Assembly: GCA_964016885.1 (NCBI GenBank)
Contig: OZ024740.1
Location: 169,632,001 to 169,696,000 of the forward strand
DNA length: 64,000 nucleotides
Origin: Eledone cirrhosa
Lineage: Eukaryota
Direction: 5' to 3'
In this document: one piece after another, positions 38,076-61,405 of the stretch
Position numbering within the stretch: the stretch's first letter is position 1
Layout: the number at the start of each line of letters is the position of its first letter
Program-made: the position numbers and the translations under genes
Notes under the pieces: generated by a model
Told to the model about the DNA's origin: nothing
Databases searched by the model: none
Seen by the model: the letters and a program-made list of their open reading frames with translations, nothing else

Positions 38076-38182
38076 GAGGTGGCTTCTGCCGGACTGCAGC
38101 TGTTTCATTCGAAGAAAATCGTCAGGAAAGCCCTGATGATTTCCTTCGAATGAAACAGTTCTGGTCCTGTGGGGGCCATTTC
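38076..38182. repeat. Imperfect hairpin made of two back-to-back hammerhead-like cores
   Basis: Plus: CTGATGA-tttccttcgaat-GAAA-cagttctg-GTC. Minus: CTGACGA-ttttcttcgaat-GAAA-cagctgca-GTC. Family fragments also at ~6178-6222, ~33950-34010, ~62505-62532. Confidence 0.65.
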
Positions 38183-47535: not shown

Positions 47536-47662
47536 CATAGACCACTAGACTGGCAGTATAACTATCGTATCCAACCGAGTTGTTAGCATAGCAAGTGTAG
47601 TTACCATTATGTCGGGGGCTGACTTCCTTGATAGACAGCAAACTACTATATTGACCACTTTG
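47536..47662 (-). CDS. Dscam: Dscam exon, Ig7 C-half (QSGQYSSLLSIKEVSPRHNGNYTCYANNSVGYDSYTASLVVY)
   Basis: tgttctag acceptor, G|GTAGGT donor, phase 0 to 1, HNGNYTC motif; not in the ORF track. Confidence 0.93.
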
Positions 47663-48040
47663 CTAGAACAAAACGGAGAAAGAAACAGATTAAATTAGGT
47701 TTTTGTTTTAGTGCAAAAACAAAAGTAATAATAATTTGGATTTATTTCAATGAAGAAGGCAACAAAGAAAGAACACTATAAACATGAAATCGCTTCTCTT
47801 ATTTTCATAATTGTTACACTAAACCTTATATTCATATTCACAGTAAATATTTGAGTTCATAATTTATTCATCAATGTGATTAATTGATTTTGTTTTCACA
47901 AAGTACAGTTTCGTCTTTGAAATATAGTGTAGCATATTCGATTGTCCTTGATCAAGGAGTGTTTAATAAATAACATATATAATATATAATAAATATGCAA
48001 TATATATATAATACATAATAACTATACAATGTATATATAT

Positions 48041-48900
48041 AGTAGACGTCCCTCCTCCTTCTCCCCTGTTGACGTCAAGTCCCCCCAACACACTTGGGAT
48101 GCAATCCAGTGCAGCCTGGCCTCAGACAGGCTCACACGCCAGCTCGACCAGCACCGCCTTGCTTGTTTTCGTGCGGCCTCCAAACCCCACAGTGGTGCCT
48201 GGCTCCATGCCCTGCCCTCCTTCTCCACTGGCACGCAGCTAGACAACCATAGCCTGCGAATCGGCGTTTCTCTGAGGCTCGGCCTCCGGATCTGCCAGCC
48301 ACACCAATGTCGCTGCGGTTCCACCGTGGACTCTTTCGGCTTCCACCCGCGTTCCTGTCGCCACAGTGCCGGCCGCATTCCACACCATGCTGCCCTCAAC
48401 GAGGTCATTAAGCATGGGTTAGACGCTGCAGGCTTCCCTTCCCAGTTCGAGCCGGTGGGGATGGATCGAGGGGACGCAAAAGGCCAGATGGCATGACCAT
48501 CTCCCTGTTCTGCGGTGGCAAACCCCTCGTCTGGGATGCCATTTGCACCGATACTTTCTGCAGTCGCAACCTGGTGCAGTCTGCGACTGACCCAGGTTCT
48601 GCTGCACGTCGGGCTGAGGGGGCCAAACTCCTCAAATACCGGTCACTCTCCGACAGGTTTGCGGTCGTTCCTCTGGCAGTGGAGACTTCTGGTGTCCTCG
48701 GCCCCAGGGCTACTTCCTTACTCACCACCATAGGCGCTGAGCTGGCCAGCCGCAAGTGTGAGCCCCGCGAGTTGGAGTGGCTTTTCCAGCGCGTCTCCCT
48801 TACCATCCTCCGGGGAAACGCCTTCTCCATTCTGTCCGCCGGAGCTGTGGGTGGGCCCCATCGCGTACTAATACATTAGTTAAATACCATTCTTTCATCT
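48041..48900 (+). mobile_element. CRE-like RLE non-LTR retrotransposon 3' fragment (one frameshift near 48480)
   Basis: GAWLHALP...LRLG...CRCG..VD..G.H..SC...H..LN...EP...RPDG...VWD...AE..K..KY...PLAVET.G.LG; sharply GC-rich compared with the flanks. Confidence 0.8.
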
Positions 48901-51096
48901 GATCTATATATAATAAATAATTCAGAGACGGCCTCCGTTAGAAAAATATTAGTTAATTTATTGCTTAATGTCCAGACAACCGTCTCCCAATTTTTCTTAT
49001 CTAGCTTGCTCAAGTCTAATATTATTTACATTTCTTCCTATTTATGTAGTTCCTGTAAGGCCTTTTTACAGTTTCTGTGATAAATTCACACATTCAGCCT
49101 TAATTCGCCAGTCATTTTCCACCATCAATTGTTATTAATTCGCACCGCACTCTTATGTGACGTGGATTCTGAAATGTGAAAAACTGAACGCCGAACATTG
49201 ATGGAACTTCCTCCGGTTTCGATAATAAGATATTCGGTCGTTCGATCAATGGAACACCTAACTCCTGTATTGACATGTAATTGGTAGATTATTTCTCAAA
49301 TACATGTACCCTTAATGTAATTATCATGCGGAATCAACATGACTAGATAGGACCTTGTAATTTCAAGTGGAACATATTTTACGGCTTCACAGAGTTTCCG
49401 TCTATCCAATTTCTTTTACCCTATAGTTTGGGTTGATCCGAGGCTATGGTAGACCTGCCAATCTCTAATAACCCAAACGGGGAGTACCATGAAAAGAACT
49501 GCCCCAAAACGAGGATAAATGAGGCAAAATGGGGAGTTTTGACATAATAAAAACTAAATCCATTTTCACAATAGAAGACATCTTTCACCCACCCCAAAGT
49601 AGCTGGCAGATCTCCCCGTCCGACGAGTAGAGTTGACAAATCAGCTATGGTACATGAAACTGTCTCACCCACTGTGAGGTGAAATCAGTAATCATGATTA
49701 CGAAGCGAACTTCTTAACTACATAGTCCAGTCTTTGTCTACATCATCCTTACGGGTTAGGTAAACTAAAGCACCGGTAATGCACTGGGATAATTGTTGGC
49801 CTTGTGCCCAAAGTAGAAACAATTATTTATGCTGCAACCACACCACTACCATTGACACCAGAACTATAATACACATCGTTTATGAATTAAATATGTTTGT
49901 AGTAGTAGTAGTAGTTGGATTAGTAGTAGTAGTAGTAGTAGTTTATGATGATTCTCATGAGTAGCCGGAGCAGGGCGGTGGAATCGCTGAATCGGCAGAA
50001 TCTCGGAATTAATACTTTATGGTATTTGCTTCGGCTATATACGTACTGGATCGATATTATACAGTATCAGTAAAATACTGGAGGTGATACATACGACATT
50101 CCCCACCCCTCAAAATTGCTGGCTTTGTGCCAAAAATTAAAAATCTTTATATTTAGTAGTAGTCTTCGTATTATTATTATTGTATTAGTCTATTTACAGT
50201 CCGATTGCAAATCCTTCCTAGTTTAGCAAAATACAGTGTCGGTCAAAAACTGAGGTTATTGTAACCAGCTTTACCGCTTCCACACATTTGTTGAACTTGT
50301 GCCTAAATTAGACATAATAATTATCATAAGTAAGGGCGGTGAATTGTTAGAATTATGTTTTGCAGTACATGCTTCGATCATTAAATTAAAACCTCTCCGA
50401 AATCAGCTCTGTCTTCCATCTTTCTGGTGTCGATAATGAAAGTACCAGTCAAATATTGAGGTCTATATTTTCAATCTCTTCCCTTAACGCCTTGGAGCCT
50501 ATGTAAGATATATTCATCATCGTACTTAAACACCAATGAAATATCTGGCAACCATCAAGACTAGATTGCATGATAATTTGCAATAGATGATGTTACACCC
50601 CCATATATATATATATATATATATATAAATTAATAAAAACAATGAATAAAAACAAAGAAACAGTTCCTTATATTAAAAAAATTCATCATTTTACGATCGT
50701 TTCTAGGATATATATGTGTGTGTTGGTATGTATATCATATAGATCTATGTAAAAGTTTTACAAACTATCAGAGGGAATATACATACCTACACATATATAT
50801 GCTGTCTTCAGAAAACAATCTTATTATCCATCTATATATATATATACTATAGAGTAAAGCATGTCCAGAGAATTATTTGATAATATATATACATCATCTC
50901 TACTCCCAATCAGCATAATTAACCACACAAAAAATCAATTAGACCAGGCTATACGAATAAAAGGCATCTGCAAAAAACAGTAAATAAATACGCCACTGCG
51001 GCGTCTTCGCGCACAACCGCTATAGAATATTTACCCAACATTTCAACAGCACGTGGAAATTAATTACATATACGGTCAACCATACATAATTAGGTA

Positions 51097-51149
<53 letters not shown>

Positions 51150-51156
<7 letters not shown>

Positions 51157-52450
51157 GATGTAAATTAAAAAAATTATAAAAATTAACTTACTTACTAAAA
51201 TTTCACTCCAACTAATTAGTTTCTGAAAGGGAATAAACATGCTTTCCGAATGGAACTCATGGAGAATGCCTTTCGTCATCAGGAAGTCAATTCTCAGCTA
51301 AGTTCACAGGCGATGCGTGGACACAGGGAACTTATACAAAAATAATTCAGCGGATGGAAAAAAGCAAGCGTGGACTAAATTCCAAGACACTGAAAAATTT
51401 CACTGCCTACTTGGTCGGTGGCAAATTCAAAAGAATCAATCACGTGACATCGAGGTTAATCAGTGAGGAGTGGGGTGTTAAGAAGACAGTAGCCGAACTA
51501 TTACTATGAACTATTGTAGCAGTTTTGACAAATTTTTGCTCAACAAAATAATTTGGAGATAATTATAAAGAATTAGCATATCTACCAACATATATATACA
51601 GATGCATACCTATGCTAGCAAATATATAGGTTTTGACTTAGTAACTTTGTGGTTCAATGCAAGGGGATGCAGAACAATAATATGAAAGACGTAAAATAAG
51701 AAAATTATAAAAATTAACTTACTTACAAAAATTTCACTCCAACTAATTAGTTTCTGAAAGGGAATAAACATGGTTTCCGAGTGGAACACATGAAGAATGC
51801 CTTTCGTCATCAGGAAGTCAATTCTTAGCTAAGTTTCCAGGCGATGCGTGGACACAGGGAACTTATGCAAAAATAATTCAGTGGATGGGCAAAAGCAAGC
51901 GTGGACTAAATTCCAAGACACTGAAAAAATCATTATTTTGTTGAGCAAAAGTTTGCCAAAACTGCTACTATATTTCATAGTAATAGTTCGGCTACTTTCT
52001 TCTTAACACCCCACTTCTCACTGATTAACCTCGATGTCACGTGATTGATTCTTTTGAATTTGCCACCGACCAAGTAGGCAGTGATTTTTTCAGTGTCTTG
52101 GAATTTAGTCCACGTTTGCTTTTTTCCATCCACTGAATTATTTTTGTATAAGTTCCCTGTGTCCACCCATCGCCTGGGAACTTAGCTGAGAATTGACTTC
52201 CTGATGACGAAATGCATTCTCCATGTGTTCCATTCGGAAAGCATGTTTATTCCCTTTCAGAAACTAATTAGTTGGAGTGAAAATTTAGTAAGTAAGTTAA
52301 TTTTTATAATTTTCTTATTTTACGTCTTTCATATAATTGTTCTGCATCTCCTTGCATTGAACCACAACGTTACTAAGACAAAACCTATATATTTGCTAGC
52401 ATAGGTATGCATCTGTATATATATGTTGATAGATATACTAATTCTTTATA
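51150..52450. repeat. ~531-bp unit present ~1.5x in tandem (51150-51932) then once inverted (51933-52450)
   Basis: tttcgtcatcagg recurs at 51271 and 51802, with the reverse complement at ~52200; (TA)n on both flanks. Confidence 0.92.
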
Positions 52451-52582
52451 TATATATAATATAATATATATATATATATAATATATAGTAATAATAATAA
52501 ATTTGAAGACTAAAATCCAAAGGGTGAAAGCACCGATTCTTTGCTTAAACTGTAATCTGTTATTTTAATAAATATATATATA

Positions 52583-52659
<77 letters not shown>

Positions 52660-52721
52660 GTAGCACACTGGTGAGTTATATCCGTAGTGGTAGAGCACTC
52701 AATCCTTGGGACGAGTTTGGT

Positions 52722-52842
52722 AGAAGTAGTTCCACAACAGTTAGTTCACCATAGCGAGAACAATTGTTTCACCTTATGCCGATCAGCTCGGAATAAGGTG
52801 AAACAATTGTTCTCGGTATGGTGAACTAACTGTTGTGGAACT

Positions 52843-52848
<6 letters not shown>
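52722..52848. repeat. 127-bp palindrome
   Basis: agaagtagttccacaacag...ccga-tcagc-tcgg...ctgttgtggaactacttct. Confidence 0.92.
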
Positions 52849-52941
<93 letters not shown>

Positions 52942-53029
52942 ATAATAATAAATTTGATGACTAAAATCCAAAGAGGGATCGATAAGGATAAATATATATC
53001 AAATATGTAAGAACTGTAGAGCAAATATT

Positions 53030-53273
53030 TATTAAAATAACAGATTAAAGTTTAAGCAAAGAATCGCTGCTTTCACCCTTAACGGGATCTTCTGAAACTA
53101 AAAAAAATCAATCTGTGAACGCAGCAGTAAACCAAAGTCTTCCTGACTTCCTTAGGTTGCAACGCTTTTCGAAATATTTACTTCTGTGTTCACTGATTTT
53201 TTTAGTTTCAGAAAATCCCGTTAAGGGTGAAAGCAACGATTCTTTGCTTAAATTTTAATCTGTTATTTTAATA
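53030..53273. repeat. Inverted repeat (~100-bp arms); deleted sibling at ~52490-52572
   Basis: tattaaaataacagatt...gctttcacccttaacggga versus tcccgttaagggtgaaagc...aatctgttattttaata. Confidence 0.88.
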
Positions 53274-53421
53274 TATATATATATATATAAATGTAATCTG
53301 AGTTTTTCGAATATTAACAGTAACATTCGATTCGTTTGCAATTATGCAAACAAGCCTAATTTTTATAGCCATGTCAGTAGAATGAACACTTCATTCTTGC
53401 TCTTGTGTTGTCATGCAAACA

Positions 53422-53471
53422 GAACTGCAGACACTAATGTTTCTTGGTATCACCCTTCATCAGTACAGCTC
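53422..53471 (-). ncRNA. Type I hammerhead ribozyme candidate on the Dscam pre-mRNA strand
   Basis: gagctgta-CTGATGA-agggtgataccaa-GAAA-cattagtg-TC-tgcagttc; core intact, stem II weaker. Confidence 0.6.
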
Positions 53472-53648
53472 ACTGTTCACCTGCCAAACTGTCAGAGCTA
53501 GTGAAAATATAAGCTATTTTCAAAAATACACAGTGACTAATCGGCCTAATTTGCATATTAGCAGACTGGCTGATCAGTCAGATCTGCAGATTAGCAGATC
53601 CACAGATCAGCCAGATTTGCATATCAGCAGACTGGCCAGGTGAACAGT

Positions 53649-53698
53649 GAGCTGTACTGATGAAGGGTGATTCCCAGAAACATTAGTGTCTGCAGTTT
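53649..53698 (+). ncRNA. Type I hammerhead ribozyme candidate
   Basis: gagctgta-CTGATGA-a-ggg-tgatt-ccc-a-GAAA-cattagtg-TC-tgcagttt: 8-bp stem I including G-U pairs, full core, GUC triplet, near-palindromic stem III. Confidence 0.7.
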
Positions 53699-54804
53699 TG
53701 TTCGCATGCCAACACAAGAGCAAGAATGAAGTGTTCATTCTACTGACATGGCTATAAAATTGAGGCTTGTTTGCAAAATTCGAAAAACTCAGAATAGATT
53801 TATTGTATTCAGCCATGTAGAGCGAAATCTTCTTTTTTATATATATATATTATAGAAATTGCTTCTATATTATACTCTGTATTGAGTACCTTACTTACTG
53901 AGGTTACTCCTGATTGGACCCGGGATAAACTTACACACACACACACTCACACACACACACACACATATATATATATGTATACACGTGACTTATTTTCTAA
54001 ATTAAAAGGGGCTGGAGGGTTTCAAGAATTGCACATTGACTCTTACATTTAAAGGAAAAAACGATCAGTAATACCATTTTAAAATGACCAAGAAATGTAT
54101 CGCCAAATATCAGGATAACATTTTCATCGACTTGTCTGTAGTGGTTAACGCAATGGTTAATGTAGAAGGAATGCAGAGATGTTAACTTTACGAGCGCTTA
54201 ATTGCAGCCATGGAATTATATTCTTACACAAGCAACGCACTTGGGGATTGAATATCTCATATATCACCATAAATACGATAGTATCAGTTACATACTTTTA
54301 AACGTCAAGCTTCTGCTAATGGAGCAGAGATGGCAGCAATAGTTACATATGATGAGAATATATTTGTTTGTTGTTGCTGTTTTAGCCCCAGGTCCGCTTG
54401 ATCAAACCTATGTATTATCAAAGTTATTCAAGGCGTGCCCATAAATGATATCCTAACTGCATTACGGGAGAGATCGATATGATTGCATTATTCAATGTGT
54501 TATTTTTTTCTCTGGACAATACAGTGTGACCTAAGAGATATTTGGTTGCTATTTCTAGCATTTCGCGTGGCTCTATAGAGGCTCTTTCATTGATTTGTCT
54601 GAACGTGCGCATAATGCGTGTCCTATACATTAAGGCACAGAGCATAATTATTTTATAGCACCTTTTTCATCATTATGTTCATGGATATTTTCATTATATA
54701 TTCATCGAGTTATACATCATCAAAAGCTTGATTTTTTATCATGATCAATTTATTCAATGTTATATTTTGTTCACATCATCCTTCACTTTCATCATTACAA
54801 TAAC

Positions 54805-55430
54805 AATAATTGTTTCTACTTTTGGCACAAGGCCAGCAATAACCCCAGTGCATTACTGGTACTTTATTTTATCCACCCTGTAAGTATGAAATGCAAAGTT
54901 AACCTCGGCGGGATTTGAACTCAGATCGTAAAGGGACGTAACTATGCTGGAAAGCATGGCATCCGACTCTCTACCGATACTTGCCAATCCGCTAATAATA
55001 ATGGTTTCTGATTTAGGCACGAGGAAAAAGATGAAATCGATCCCAGTTACTTATTTATCGACCCCGTAAGAGTGAAAATCAAAGACAACTGCGCCTGGAT
55101 TTGAACTCAGAACCTAACAAACCGGAATAAATACTGCTAAGCATATCCCTGCCAAAACACCTCCCTTATATATTAGTAGGTAGGTAGCAGTAGTTGTTTC
55201 TTTATCTAAATATTTATATTCTGATTTAGGCAGAAGGCGAACAATTGGTGGGGGCGGAGGGGGGGGGGGATGTCGATTAAATCGAGCCCAGCGCGTTACT
55301 GGTACTTTATTCTATCGGTCACGGAGGAATGAAAGTTGACCCTAGCGGGATGTGAACGCAGAATATAAAGAGCAAGGGAAATGTTATAATATATTTTTTC
55401 GGACACTCAAACGATTCAACCAAATCCAAC
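54805..55430 (-). mobile_element. Three tRNA-derived SINE copies
   Basis: Same family as 3357 (tttggcacaaggccagcaat...ggatttgaactcaga...gccaatccgc). Confidence 0.75.
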
Positions 55431-55435
55431 TCCCT

Positions 55436-55504
55436 AGTAGTAGTAATAGTAGTAGTAGTAGTAGCAGCAGCAGTATCAGCAGCAGCAGCAGTAGCAACAG
55501 CAGC

Positions 55505-55558
<54 letters not shown>

Positions 55559-55559
55559 T
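55436..55559. repeat. (AGT/AGC)n trinucleotide microsatellite
   Basis: Direct reading. Confidence 0.95.
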
Positions 55560-56747
55560 TCTGATTTTGGCACAAATGATTTAAATCAAGGTAGGTTTAT
55601 GGCATGCCAGTCCAGAAGTTGCTCTAGAACGAGGCATATAATGGAGAAGCAAATCCCTATATAGCTTGGCACCACAGATATCGCTACTCATTTCTGCAGA
55701 TGAGTTAACAGATGCAACCTCTAATAAAGTGTCTTTTTCAAGGGAACAACTCAGCAGTAATATAAGAACAAGAAATCACCCCATAGTGGGTACGATAAAT
55801 CGTATAAGGGAATTCGGATTACCCATCCGCAACCCCAAATTACCTCGACATAAAAAAGACAAATGCCTTTTCACAGTCCTTTCCACCAACCTACATCCAC
55901 AGAGTAGACCTCTTTAATAAAGTCAATTTCGTCACTCCCACCTTATCTTTCATAACATTTTAAAGGGTGCAAAGAACAGGGCTACTGAACTAGATATGTA
56001 GCGCTTTAATTAGACCCTCAGTCCATCGACAAAATATAACATCATGTGTGGACTTCCTTTTCCAAGTGCCGGGTTGAAAAACCATAGTTATTTCTATGGT
56101 AACACCCCTCGTACTAGTTCACGGTACTCTTCCAAACCCCTATTTCCGACGCATCCGAAAAGCAAAGTCTCTAGCATAAAAAGAAACACAAGTCATGAGA
56201 CCTAGTGTGTGATGCGAAATGGTTCAGATAGGTAGCCGTTTAGTTTGAGTACTGAATAGATGTCGCTGTAGATTGTAACTATCTGGCCTATTAAAACGAA
56301 ATTCACAGCGGCTATACTTACGACAACCGTCAGGTATCGATACCGTACGCTTTAAATTAATCTAAATAGATCGATCAAACCTCTACTGAAGACAAACTTA
56401 ATGAAATTTGTATATTCCGTTGTGGCTTCATGATGATATTCGTAACTTTTTGCTTCCTTTTGAAAACAACCATTAATTGTTCTTGACGAAGTATCTCTTA
56501 ATTCCGCCATTTCATTTATTTGGTGGCGGAATGACGAAAACATCATTCACTATTTTACTAAGTATGGAAAAAGGCCAAGTAGTATCCTATAGTAAGTAAG
56601 ATACTATGCCTAATATCGATTTATTTACTGCTTTTATGTGCTTATGTATTTATCTTTTTTTTTGTCATTATCAAGACGATCTAATCGAAGCTATATAGAT
56701 ATTCACCGAGAAACGATTTCTTTTTTTTGTCTCCAGGTTATTTTTGT

Positions 56748-57125
<378 letters not shown>

Positions 57126-57216
57126 ATTTATTTCATCAGTTCTTTCCATAGAATTCTGTTATCAGTCAAACCGAGCTTTACCTTTAGTTTTTTTATGCTG
57201 CTGATTATCACTAGTG

Positions 57217-57257
<41 letters not shown>

Positions 57258-57643
57258 GCTAGTTTTACAGTTGCCAGTAAAAAAAAATTACATTCGTCCA
57301 AATCAATGTTGGAAATGTGGTTGTTGTTCTGATGTTGTTTTACTTCACTATTTCATTCTATTTCTATTTTCATGATCTCATTCTCGATGTTGTTGTTTAT
57401 GTTAATTTTGTTTCTTATGTAGTTTTTTTTTTCTGGTTTTCGTTGCTAATAGTTGTATGTTTTTAAGTTTAATTTTTCTCGTTTCTTCTTTTTTTTTATC
57501 AGTAAATATAATCCATCACGTCGCTGCTCCCAACCTATATCTCCCAATCTTTCAATTAATCTATCTATTTCTCTCTCTGTCTATCTATGTATATGTATGT
57601 CTTCCTGCCTCTCTGCATGCATGTATGTCCGTTAGTCCATCCG

Positions 57644-57710
<67 letters not shown>

Positions 57711-58215
57711 ATCTATCTACCCATCTATCCATCAATCTTCCTCAATCTTTCAAACAATAATTGATCAAGGGAATATTATTGATAAACATCGCTTCGTTGG
57801 TAATGGATATAATCATTATGATGACAAAATCTGCAATCATATAGATGAAAGTAATGATGATAGCGCTCATGAAGATGATGATGAGAATGGTGTGAATGAC
57901 AAAGTTACACACCTTAAGAAAATCAAGTTATATCTGGTGGCGCAGAAGAAACTGTTAAAACATGACGATAAGTAATTATATTATTTATAATGGTAACAAT
58001 GATAATGATAACGATAAACTGTACGATTTCTATCCTGGACATAACATTCTAATCATATTAGAAGCCAACATTATAACTTAAGTAAAAGATCTGAGTTTAA
58101 TTATAGTGTGTAAATAGGAGGACAATATTGTGCATTCTAATTGGTAGGTAAGATCGATCAATTCGTGCAGTTCTGGAAAAGGTGGATGGTTGGCTTAAAA
58201 ACAAAATCAATTCTA

Positions 58216-58260
<45 letters not shown>

Positions 58261-59163
58261 GAATAAAAAAATAAATAAACTGAAAATATGAAGAATGAAA
58301 AACAAAACAACTGCTAAAAGAATACATGGTAGAATAAATATGACTATAAACATATAAAGAATATAAGAATATAGCAGGGAGCAAATAAATAAACAAAACG
58401 AATAAATCAAACCTTTAAACGTGAATATAATGAAATTGGACACAGGGATAGAGAGTTAGAGAGCAAGAGATAATAAATGAGGTTGGAGCAGTGTGTTAAA
58501 TATGTGGTTGGGGGACGGACGCGTTTTAGGGTAAGAAAAGGATGTTCAGAGACTTGATGTGGTAAAGTAGGTTTAAATAAAGGAGTTAGAAGTATATCAA
58601 AATTATACATTAAAGGGATTGTGTCTACAAAAGAGAACTGAAGCAAAACTAGCTAATCTAAACAGCATATTTAAGTTACTAAATGAATAAAATCGTTTAT
58701 AATGTCATATATCACGTGATTTTGACATAGTTACATTCTGAGTTCGCATTGTAAGTGCGTTAACAAAATCAATGATAATCGATTCCTTGATTTCCGTATC
58801 AGAAATCGTCTTAACGAAAACCTAAATGAATACAGTCATGATCTGGCACACGATCTACAATCTAGCTAACTCATTTACATTCTATTACGTGCAATTCATT
58901 TCATTCACCCTACCTACGATCTGTTGAGTTTCCAGGACAGAACAGAAATTATATTCCCCAAAATATTCGCAACGAATATTTCAGCATTTTACAAATAAAA
59001 AAAAAAAACCCATTCAAATATACGGTTTCAGAAAGACAGTGTGATTAACCACATATTTTTTAATAAAATTTAATTATTTAATATTTTGCAAATTTTGTGT
59101 CAAGTCATGTTAAAATAACATTTAAATTAAATATACTGTAAAGGAAATTTAAACGAAATTTAC

Positions 59164-59321
59164 CTGTATGTTGATGCCAAGCTGTGAAGGTATCACCTGG
59201 CCGTTCTTCAGCCAACCGACGGATATGGGCAGTTCTCCACTGCTAATCACACATATTACTGTTACTCTTTGACCTGCTTTTGTTTGCTTTTGGAAAGTAA
59301 ATGGTGTTATAGTAGGTGGTT
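59164..59321 (-). CDS. Dscam: Dscam exon, Ig7 N-half (EPPTITPFTF...VICVISSGELPISVGWLKNG...INIQ)
   Basis: tcttacag acceptor, CAG|GTAAAT donor, phase 1 to 0. Confidence 0.93.
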
Positions 59322-61302: not shown

Positions 61303-61405
61303 CTATCAAAGAGAGAAAGATTTAAAAAATATATTAAGTATTTACATATGAAATTTGTGTGTACAAATATATTCAGGAGTGTGGGTATCTGTGCTGAAAA
61401 TATTA

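Follow-up and report, generated by a model that had tools for sequence, protein, structure and literature searches.

Paired hammerhead cores in a Dscam intron of Eledone cirrhosa form one head-to-head insertion of an abundant non-coding repeat

Overview

The two hammerhead cores that lie within the Dscam gene of Eledone cirrhosa are parts of one head-to-head insertion of a non-coding repeat and are no device of Dscam. The original prediction, which had described the cores themselves, overlooked the family of thousands of copies that stands behind both of them. It is highly probable that the locus carries a single insertion of an abundant non-coding hammerhead repeat of ~437 nt, which a reverse transcriptase (RT), likely of the Penelope type, placed into (TA)n as head-to-head arms, and that its ribozymes are, as predicted, catalytically silent here. 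The family, the unit length, the two-armed head-to-head build, the two fixed 3' ends with a tail on one arm and the (TA)n targets can be read directly from the genomic copies.

The host gene and its intron

The whole stretch of DNA that was analysed, termed the window, is 64 kb long. Dscam is encoded on its minus strand, and the Ig7 domain is split over two exons. The first half, with its exon end at 59164, matches residues 619-668 of Drosophila Dscam as well as human DSCAM Ig7, and the second half, with its exon start at 47662, matches Dscam 673-712. The identity of these exons was established by a PDB sequence search, in which the best matches of both half-exons were Dscam Ig7. A protein homologue search with the 55-aa exon as the query gave no match, and a motif scan of the 64-kb window found no duplicated Ig7 exon.

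47663-59163, minus strand: host intron between the Ig7 halves; 11,501 nt, GT-AG, phase 0

The hammerhead site on the minus strand is mid-intronic: the donor is 5,733 nt away and the acceptor 5,767 nt. As had been proposed, this copy is part of the Dscam pre-mRNA, the gene being on the minus strand and the copy in sense orientation.

Dscam Ig domains in general seem to be split into half-domain exons with very long, repeat-rich introns between them (4209-61321, minus strand), the candidate minus-strand exons lying at 61321, 59325, 47662, 20851, 17355, 4875 and 4454. Another retroelement ORF fragment is present at 47993-48879, 330 nt upstream of the Ig7b acceptor, and has relatives in loci L246 and L251. 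Pfam gave no match for this fragment and nothing informative for nine ORFs, three from the loci and six from the window.

Two hammerhead cores on opposite strands

53649-53698, plus strand: type I hammerhead, antisense to Dscam; predicted cut after 53690; 3-bp G-C stem II retained
53422-53471, minus strand: type I hammerhead, Dscam-sense; predicted cut after 53430; stem II reduced, core-proximal G-C pair lost

Complete cores on both strands of the Ig7 intron, as originally described, were found again at the same positions. In the plus core, the 5' strand of stem I (GAGCTGTA, 53649-53656) pairs with the 3' strand at 53691-53698. In between follow CTGATGA (53657-53663), a 13-nt stem II region, GAAA (53677-53680), CATTAGTG and a GUC ending at 53690. 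The minus core has a matching layout at 53471-53422, with CTGATGA at 53463, CATTAGTG and a GUC ending at 53430. The CUGAUGA, GAAA, GUC triplet and 8-bp stem I that had been claimed for both arms are thus all present, and the CUGANGA, GAAA and NUH core is found in both copies and in the family consensus.

The 8-bp stem I holds in both cores, with three G-U pairs in the plus and two in the minus copy. It is extended by 7 bp beyond a 2-nt bulge and closes the open end; in isolation, its pair probabilities are 0.5-0.98, and that of the core-proximal pair is 0.2. Stem III (ACATTAGTGT) is near-palindromic and fit for a dimeric fold, as suggested earlier: it self-pairs over 10 bp at -8.8 kcal/mol, it is absent from the monomer fold (P=0.00), and a dimer is predicted to be favoured over monomers. 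The unpaired bases that had been noted beside the core in stem II are also real. An A is inserted on either side of this stem, so that G10.1-C11.1 is not stacked directly on the core.

Searched with a complete type I descriptor, the window yields these two sites only, whereas 150 Markov-resampled windows yielded a single hit. As arms of one inverted repeat (53335-53483 and 53637-53785, 149 nt, 93% complementary), the cores do not count as independent. The Rfam hammerhead families gave no match in the window, nor in 53380-53760 (381 nt) at E<=10.

Structure of the insertion

53271-53288: (TA)n target tract, left
53287-53639, minus strand: left arm, a 5'-truncated ~437-nt unit that starts at consensus 270, includes the hammerhead and finishes in the short 3' end at ~185; Dscam sense
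53637-53639: head-to-head junction of both 5' ends, with a 3-nt overlap, CAG
53637-53840, plus strand: right arm, 5'-truncated, from consensus 426 to ~220, interrupted by a 30-nt deletion; finishes in the long 3' end
53803-53839, plus strand: ~35-nt Penelope-type tail, right arm only, from consensus alignment; such a tail is a hallmark in PMC8557442 and PMC11167929
53838-53852: (TA)n target tract, right

The left arm carries 12 substitutions in 353 nt, and the arms are ~3% diverged, similar to other family copies. Two consecutive units on the same strand are absent from the Dscam locus; they are present at other loci, e.g. L024 and L049/L050.

Other repeats lie close by. Directly to the left of the element, a small head-to-head inverted repeat (53025-53278 and 52500-52582) ends in (TA)n and also abuts a family copy in locus L005; no hammerhead core was found in it. 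An unrelated palindromic repeat at 51106-52455, with arms 94-96% complementary, also occurs in locus L080. It holds three hammerhead-like cores, at 52201 (plus), 51813 (minus) and 51282 (minus), with a long stem II and a short palindromic stem III. At 38103-38155, a third family shows overlapping opposite-strand CTGA(T/C)GA...GAAA motifs, and a similar motif is seen in locus L093.

An abundant family with Penelope-type marks

In the 3.0-Gb genome, 760 exact matches to a 44-nt consensus core, 1,283 to a 35-nt body motif and 2,042 to a looser core pattern were found, with 0 for the reversed controls. The repeat is abundant in one of two contig runs of undefined kind. Tandem copies give a unit length of 436-438 nt (~437) at 38% GC, and the unit RNA is strongly self-paired (folding z = -6.65). 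The unit has no long ORF, its longest ATG frame being 83 aa, and no RT plus GIY-YIG ORF. It is best described as a non-autonomous element of the retrozyme type, and its genomic copies, through which it is known here, place it as an additional member of the non-LTR retrozymes.

The architecture was read from 79 loci, selected by a motif that lies outside the hammerhead. They come from the first 100 of the 1,283 body-motif places, all on chromosome C1; 10 places already known from searches that select on the hammerhead were set aside, as were 3 overlapping loci. Two arms were seen at 53 of the 79 loci, and all 53 pairs were head-to-head, as were 9/9 opposite-strand hammerhead pairs in a separate set. 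A tail was present on one arm at 41 of the two-armed loci, on both at 0 and on neither at 2, with 10 unassignable. The 3' ends of the family fall at two fixed sites, one near consensus 184 and the other near 217 (~35 nt apart), and most of them, judged by eye, run into (TA)n. The intact GUC is crossed by 68 of the 179 segments in this sample, and 11 segments are longer than one unit. Insertion by Penelope-type enzymes is likely, because head-to-head 5'-truncated arms, a one-arm tail and (TA)n ends match the marks of Penelope elements.

An older subfamily (L243-L253) has 80-90% identity to the unit and a 4-nt loop II, with ends and tail as in the main family. The copies show no strand bias that would point to A-to-I editing scars (A>G 101 vs T>C 87, P = 0.56). 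Selection on the core was considered from its divergence (2.2% vs 4.2%) and discarded, the core being A-rich and stem II standing at 8%.

Two Penelope-like families were sampled in the same genome, which we take, by motifs such as YRDD/YIDD, a Cys linker and a GIY-YIG-like domain, to be Hydra-like and Neptune-like. One of them, seen in L063 and L065, is young and very abundant, with 743-aa open RT-endonuclease frames; it gave 128 scored matches at 91-100% identity and 91,643 first-look candidates, and it carries its own, different hammerhead-like motif upstream of the ORF. The Neptune-like family (L082-L099) has a hammerhead in its 3' region with an extra A after A9 and none before G12, and copies of the 437-nt family lie near 2/19 of its ORF loci. 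No homology of the unit to the pseudo-LTR (pLTR) of a Penelope-like partner was found in the 20 + 20 loci of the two families, and further families exist.

The family ribozyme

Stem II of the consensus reads GGGU-GAU-ACCC and is flanked by one A at either end. The A-flanked stem is the family consensus and not decay, as the two flanking As are found in 66/68 and 69/69 unbiased copies; in the older subfamily they are conserved by construction of the search pattern and are not evidence. The A inserted between C11.1 and G12 disrupts the canonical geometry of the core. Reportedly, Penelope-associated dimeric hammerheads were the subject of a 2017 paper. No second extra A, between 11.1 and 12, was found in the consulted passages on Penelope hammerheads; the supplementary alignments of PMC4209133 may hold one.

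When a unit stands alone, its CUGAUG box pairs with the palindrome of stem III, and folding the hammerhead in place of this core-palindrome hairpin takes ~7 kcal/mol. For tandem units, the double hammerhead comes out ~12 kcal/mol more favourable than two monomers (9.2 vs 21.1) but still 9 kcal/mol above the free ensemble, in energy models that take no account of tertiary contacts in the core, of proteins or of ADAR editing. One compensatory pair (G431-C55 to A-U) was observed in the extended stem I between the older and the main subfamily. Twelve fixed differences between the subfamilies are at paired positions; nine keep pairing and three break a pair.

A probable cleavage footprint in genomic 5' ends

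Were cut RNA the template for insertion, the 5' ends of copies would be expected to stop at position 43, the first base after the GUC. Among 133 family 5' ends, position 43 is indeed the mode, with 7 ends; positions 56 and 57 have 5 each. By zone, 34 ends fall at 43-58 as compared to 2 at 27-42 and 8 at 59-74 (P about 1-2e-6), and the test is unchanged when the 10 left-out places are added as read-through (P about 1e-6). The edge is sharp, with 12 ends at 43-46 vs 1 at 39-42.

The genome-wide count used patterns in which the three consensus bases just upstream were disallowed, and every hit was inspected. It gave 24 true 5' ends at position 43 (two from one locus, and one shared with the 133-end sample) against 5 at 41, 4 at 39, 9 at 35, 6 at 66 and 3 at 321 (P = 7e-4), the control position 321 also beginning with TGCAG. 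Per at-risk copy, the values are 0.56 at 43, 0.33 at 66 and 0.23 at 35, and the excess over position 66 is less than twofold.

The zone from 43 to ~57/58 coincides with the 3' strand of stem I, and several 5' junctions show 1-3 nt of microhomology. Part of the pile-up is accounted for by RT fall-off at the hairpin and by TG/TGC microhomology. The edge at the GUC site is nonetheless probably caused by cleavage, and the distribution of ends suggests that the family ribozyme, despite the additional A that flanks stem II on both sides, likely cuts in vivo.

Proposed mechanism

On the preferred explanation, transcripts with tandem units would form a double hammerhead through the ACAUUAGUGU palindrome and be cut after the GUC, whereas in a lone unit CUGAUG would pair with the same palindrome and the RNA would remain uncut. 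A Penelope-like RT/endonuclease may then start at either of two internal sites, working from both sides of a (TA)n break. Its templates would be cut linear units, giving ends at 43-58, along with uncut or re-joined units, giving read-through, and the two cDNAs would be joined head-to-head. In the Dscam copy, the antisense arm would be transcribed first, locking the core in a ~150-bp duplex and leaving Dscam splicing unaffected. A fuller version is somewhat favoured by the genomic copies: the A-flanked hammerhead would cleave in the germline as a dimer, and the 5' ends would be an in vivo read-out of ribozyme cleavage in a Penelope-driven retrozyme cycle, in which both cut linear templates ending at the scissile bond and uncut or re-joined (circular) ones are copied from both sides of (TA)n breaks, giving rise to thousands of insertions.

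Predicted silence at the Dscam locus and alternative explanations

Since the two arms each extend past the hammerhead, transcription in either direction produces the antisense arm before the core. The hammerhead stems have P=0.00 in the nascent as well as the full-length transcript, and forcing the hammerhead fold costs 76.9 kcal/mol for the minus, Dscam-sense copy and 82.6 kcal/mol for the plus copy. No second core on the same strand is present in the 64-kb window, and as the only other core lies on the opposite strand, no dimer can form in cis. Moreover, a C-to-A change in the minus copy breaks the G-C pair nearest the core and leaves a stem II hairpin of -1.9 kcal/mol vs -4.4 for the consensus; this change is seen in 0/69 unbiased copies, but occurs in locus L029. 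The hammerheads here are predicted to be silent because of the antisense masking, the missing same-strand partner and the lost stem II pair. It had been supposed that the minus copy would cut the intron between the Ig7 halves unless the upstream antisense arm masked it. The masking is supported by the fold models, which predict it to be complete in either direction, whereas the cutting is not supported, given the penalty of 77-83 kcal/mol, the lack of a cis partner and the broken pair.

Conserved intronic hammerheads of amniotes are single-copy, conserved ribozymes of their introns. An active or regulated Dscam ribozyme in the manner of CPEB3, cutting between the Ig7 half-exons and perhaps unmasked by editing or helicases, might be imagined here too, since all core bases and the GUC are intact, the copy is in sense, and an intronic ribozyme can affect its host mRNA, as described in part of PMC10919898. 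Yet the masking described above extends to the nascent transcript, the stem II closing pair is lost and the partner is missing, while the divergence and the 30-nt deletion are typical of a decaying copy; models of the fold make cleavage of Dscam pre-mRNA by the minus copy, regulated or not, extremely improbable. A quite unlikely reading, though less so than the former, takes the arms as pseudo-LTR fragments of an autonomous Penelope-like element and not as a stand-alone non-coding unit. It draws on the fact that all the structural marks are Penelope-like (as set out in the relevant part of PMC8557442), that Penelope ORFs adjoin some copies (L014, L019, L023 and L047) and that family copies lie near two other, Neptune-like ORF loci of the 19 mentioned. 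Upstream of the hammerhead, however, copies enter the previous unit at a 436-438-nt period and never a shared ORF, and the two sampled Penelope families have different hammerheads.

A more serious, though still doubtful, alternative leaves the element and its silent copy unchanged and takes the family hammerhead as dead or as a purely structural relic, the pile-up of ends arising from RT stalling at the stem I hairpin together with microhomology. The A on both sides of stem II, the missing Rfam match and the 5' end peak at 56-58, which falls at the hairpin base, speak for it. So does the part of PMC11167929 on its own hammerhead, which was dispensable for insertion in vitro and had no RNA-seq ends at its site, as well as the cleavage assays in 10.64898/2026.07.22.740005, where 8/9 Xenopus dimers were uncleaved in vitro. 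Against it, the edge of the pile-up is sharp exactly at the predicted site, yet the uncut hairpin extends to position 33, and the second TGCAG site collected far fewer ends than position 43. Cleavage within the family together with silence at Dscam remains the preferred explanation.

Relation to known elements

Metazoan non-LTR retrozymes (PMC7229834, 10.64898/2026.07.22.740005) are, in the parts that describe them, short, non-coding, self-paired and below 50% in GC, with one type I hammerhead and both dispersed and tandem copies, and the 437-nt family resembles them in all of this. With the axolotl retrozymes it shares a short palindromic stem III favouring the dimeric fold. It differs in length, since the RNAs reported by Cervera and de la Pena in 2020 (PMC7229834) span 170-400 nt, and in that most of its copies are short two-armed head-to-head insertions, unlike the retrozymes as described in these sources. 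The words 'inverted', 'microsatellite', 'octopus' and 'cephalopod' are all absent from the main text of PMC7229834. Two consecutive same-strand units serve as the 'active' criterion in the portion of Li et al. 2026 (10.64898/2026.07.22.740005) on this point, and, unlike such retrozyme tandems, the Dscam locus lacks them.

Penelope-like insertions are described in PMC8557442 as having an inverted 5'-truncated copy, a 30-40-bp tail at one end and a microsatellite bias, and in PMC11167929 the tail is the stretch between two internal RT start sites. Accordingly described elements (PMC4209133, PMC8557442, PMC11167929) and the present family have in common the inverted 5'-truncated copy at the 5' end, the 30-40-nt tail and the microsatellite target. 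Penelope hammerheads typically carry one additional nucleotide between 9 and 10.1 (PMC4209133), and it recurs here along with the palindromic stem III and the paired hammerheads on opposite strands 100-700 bp apart that mark Penelope pseudo-LTRs. In contrast to these elements as there described, the 437-nt unit has no RT/GIY-YIG ORF, its stem I is long (8+7 bp), and its hammerhead has, as a second insertion, the A that separates 11.1 from 12. In this family the predicted cleavage site is marked by the 5' ends of genomic copies, whereas Frangieh et al. (PMC11167929), in the section concerned, found no RNA ends at theirs.

The intronic HDV-like ribozyme of CPEB3 (PMC10919898) offers a likeness as well, being a ribozyme motif in sense orientation within an intron of a neural gene. 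The CPEB3 ribozyme is single-copy and conserved, whereas the Dscam element belongs to a family of thousands, is decaying and is predicted to be masked by its inverted arm.

Significance

The origin of the hammerhead pair is an ordinary one: the hammerheads are real, the insertion has Penelope marks, and the fold predictions leave it silent at the Dscam site. For Dscam itself, the locus is a predicted silent passenger, contributing at most a ~150-bp intronic duplex. Two features deserve a bench test. One is the cleavage footprint seen at the level of the family, and the other is the stem II with its flanking As, a natural core variant which is missed by Rfam and is easy to assay. The relevant parts of PMC4209133 and PMC11167929 leave unsettled whether hammerheads associated with Penelope cut in vivo, and the 5' end distribution seen here points to cut RNA as a template. 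The family may thus serve as a usable test case for retroelement biology.
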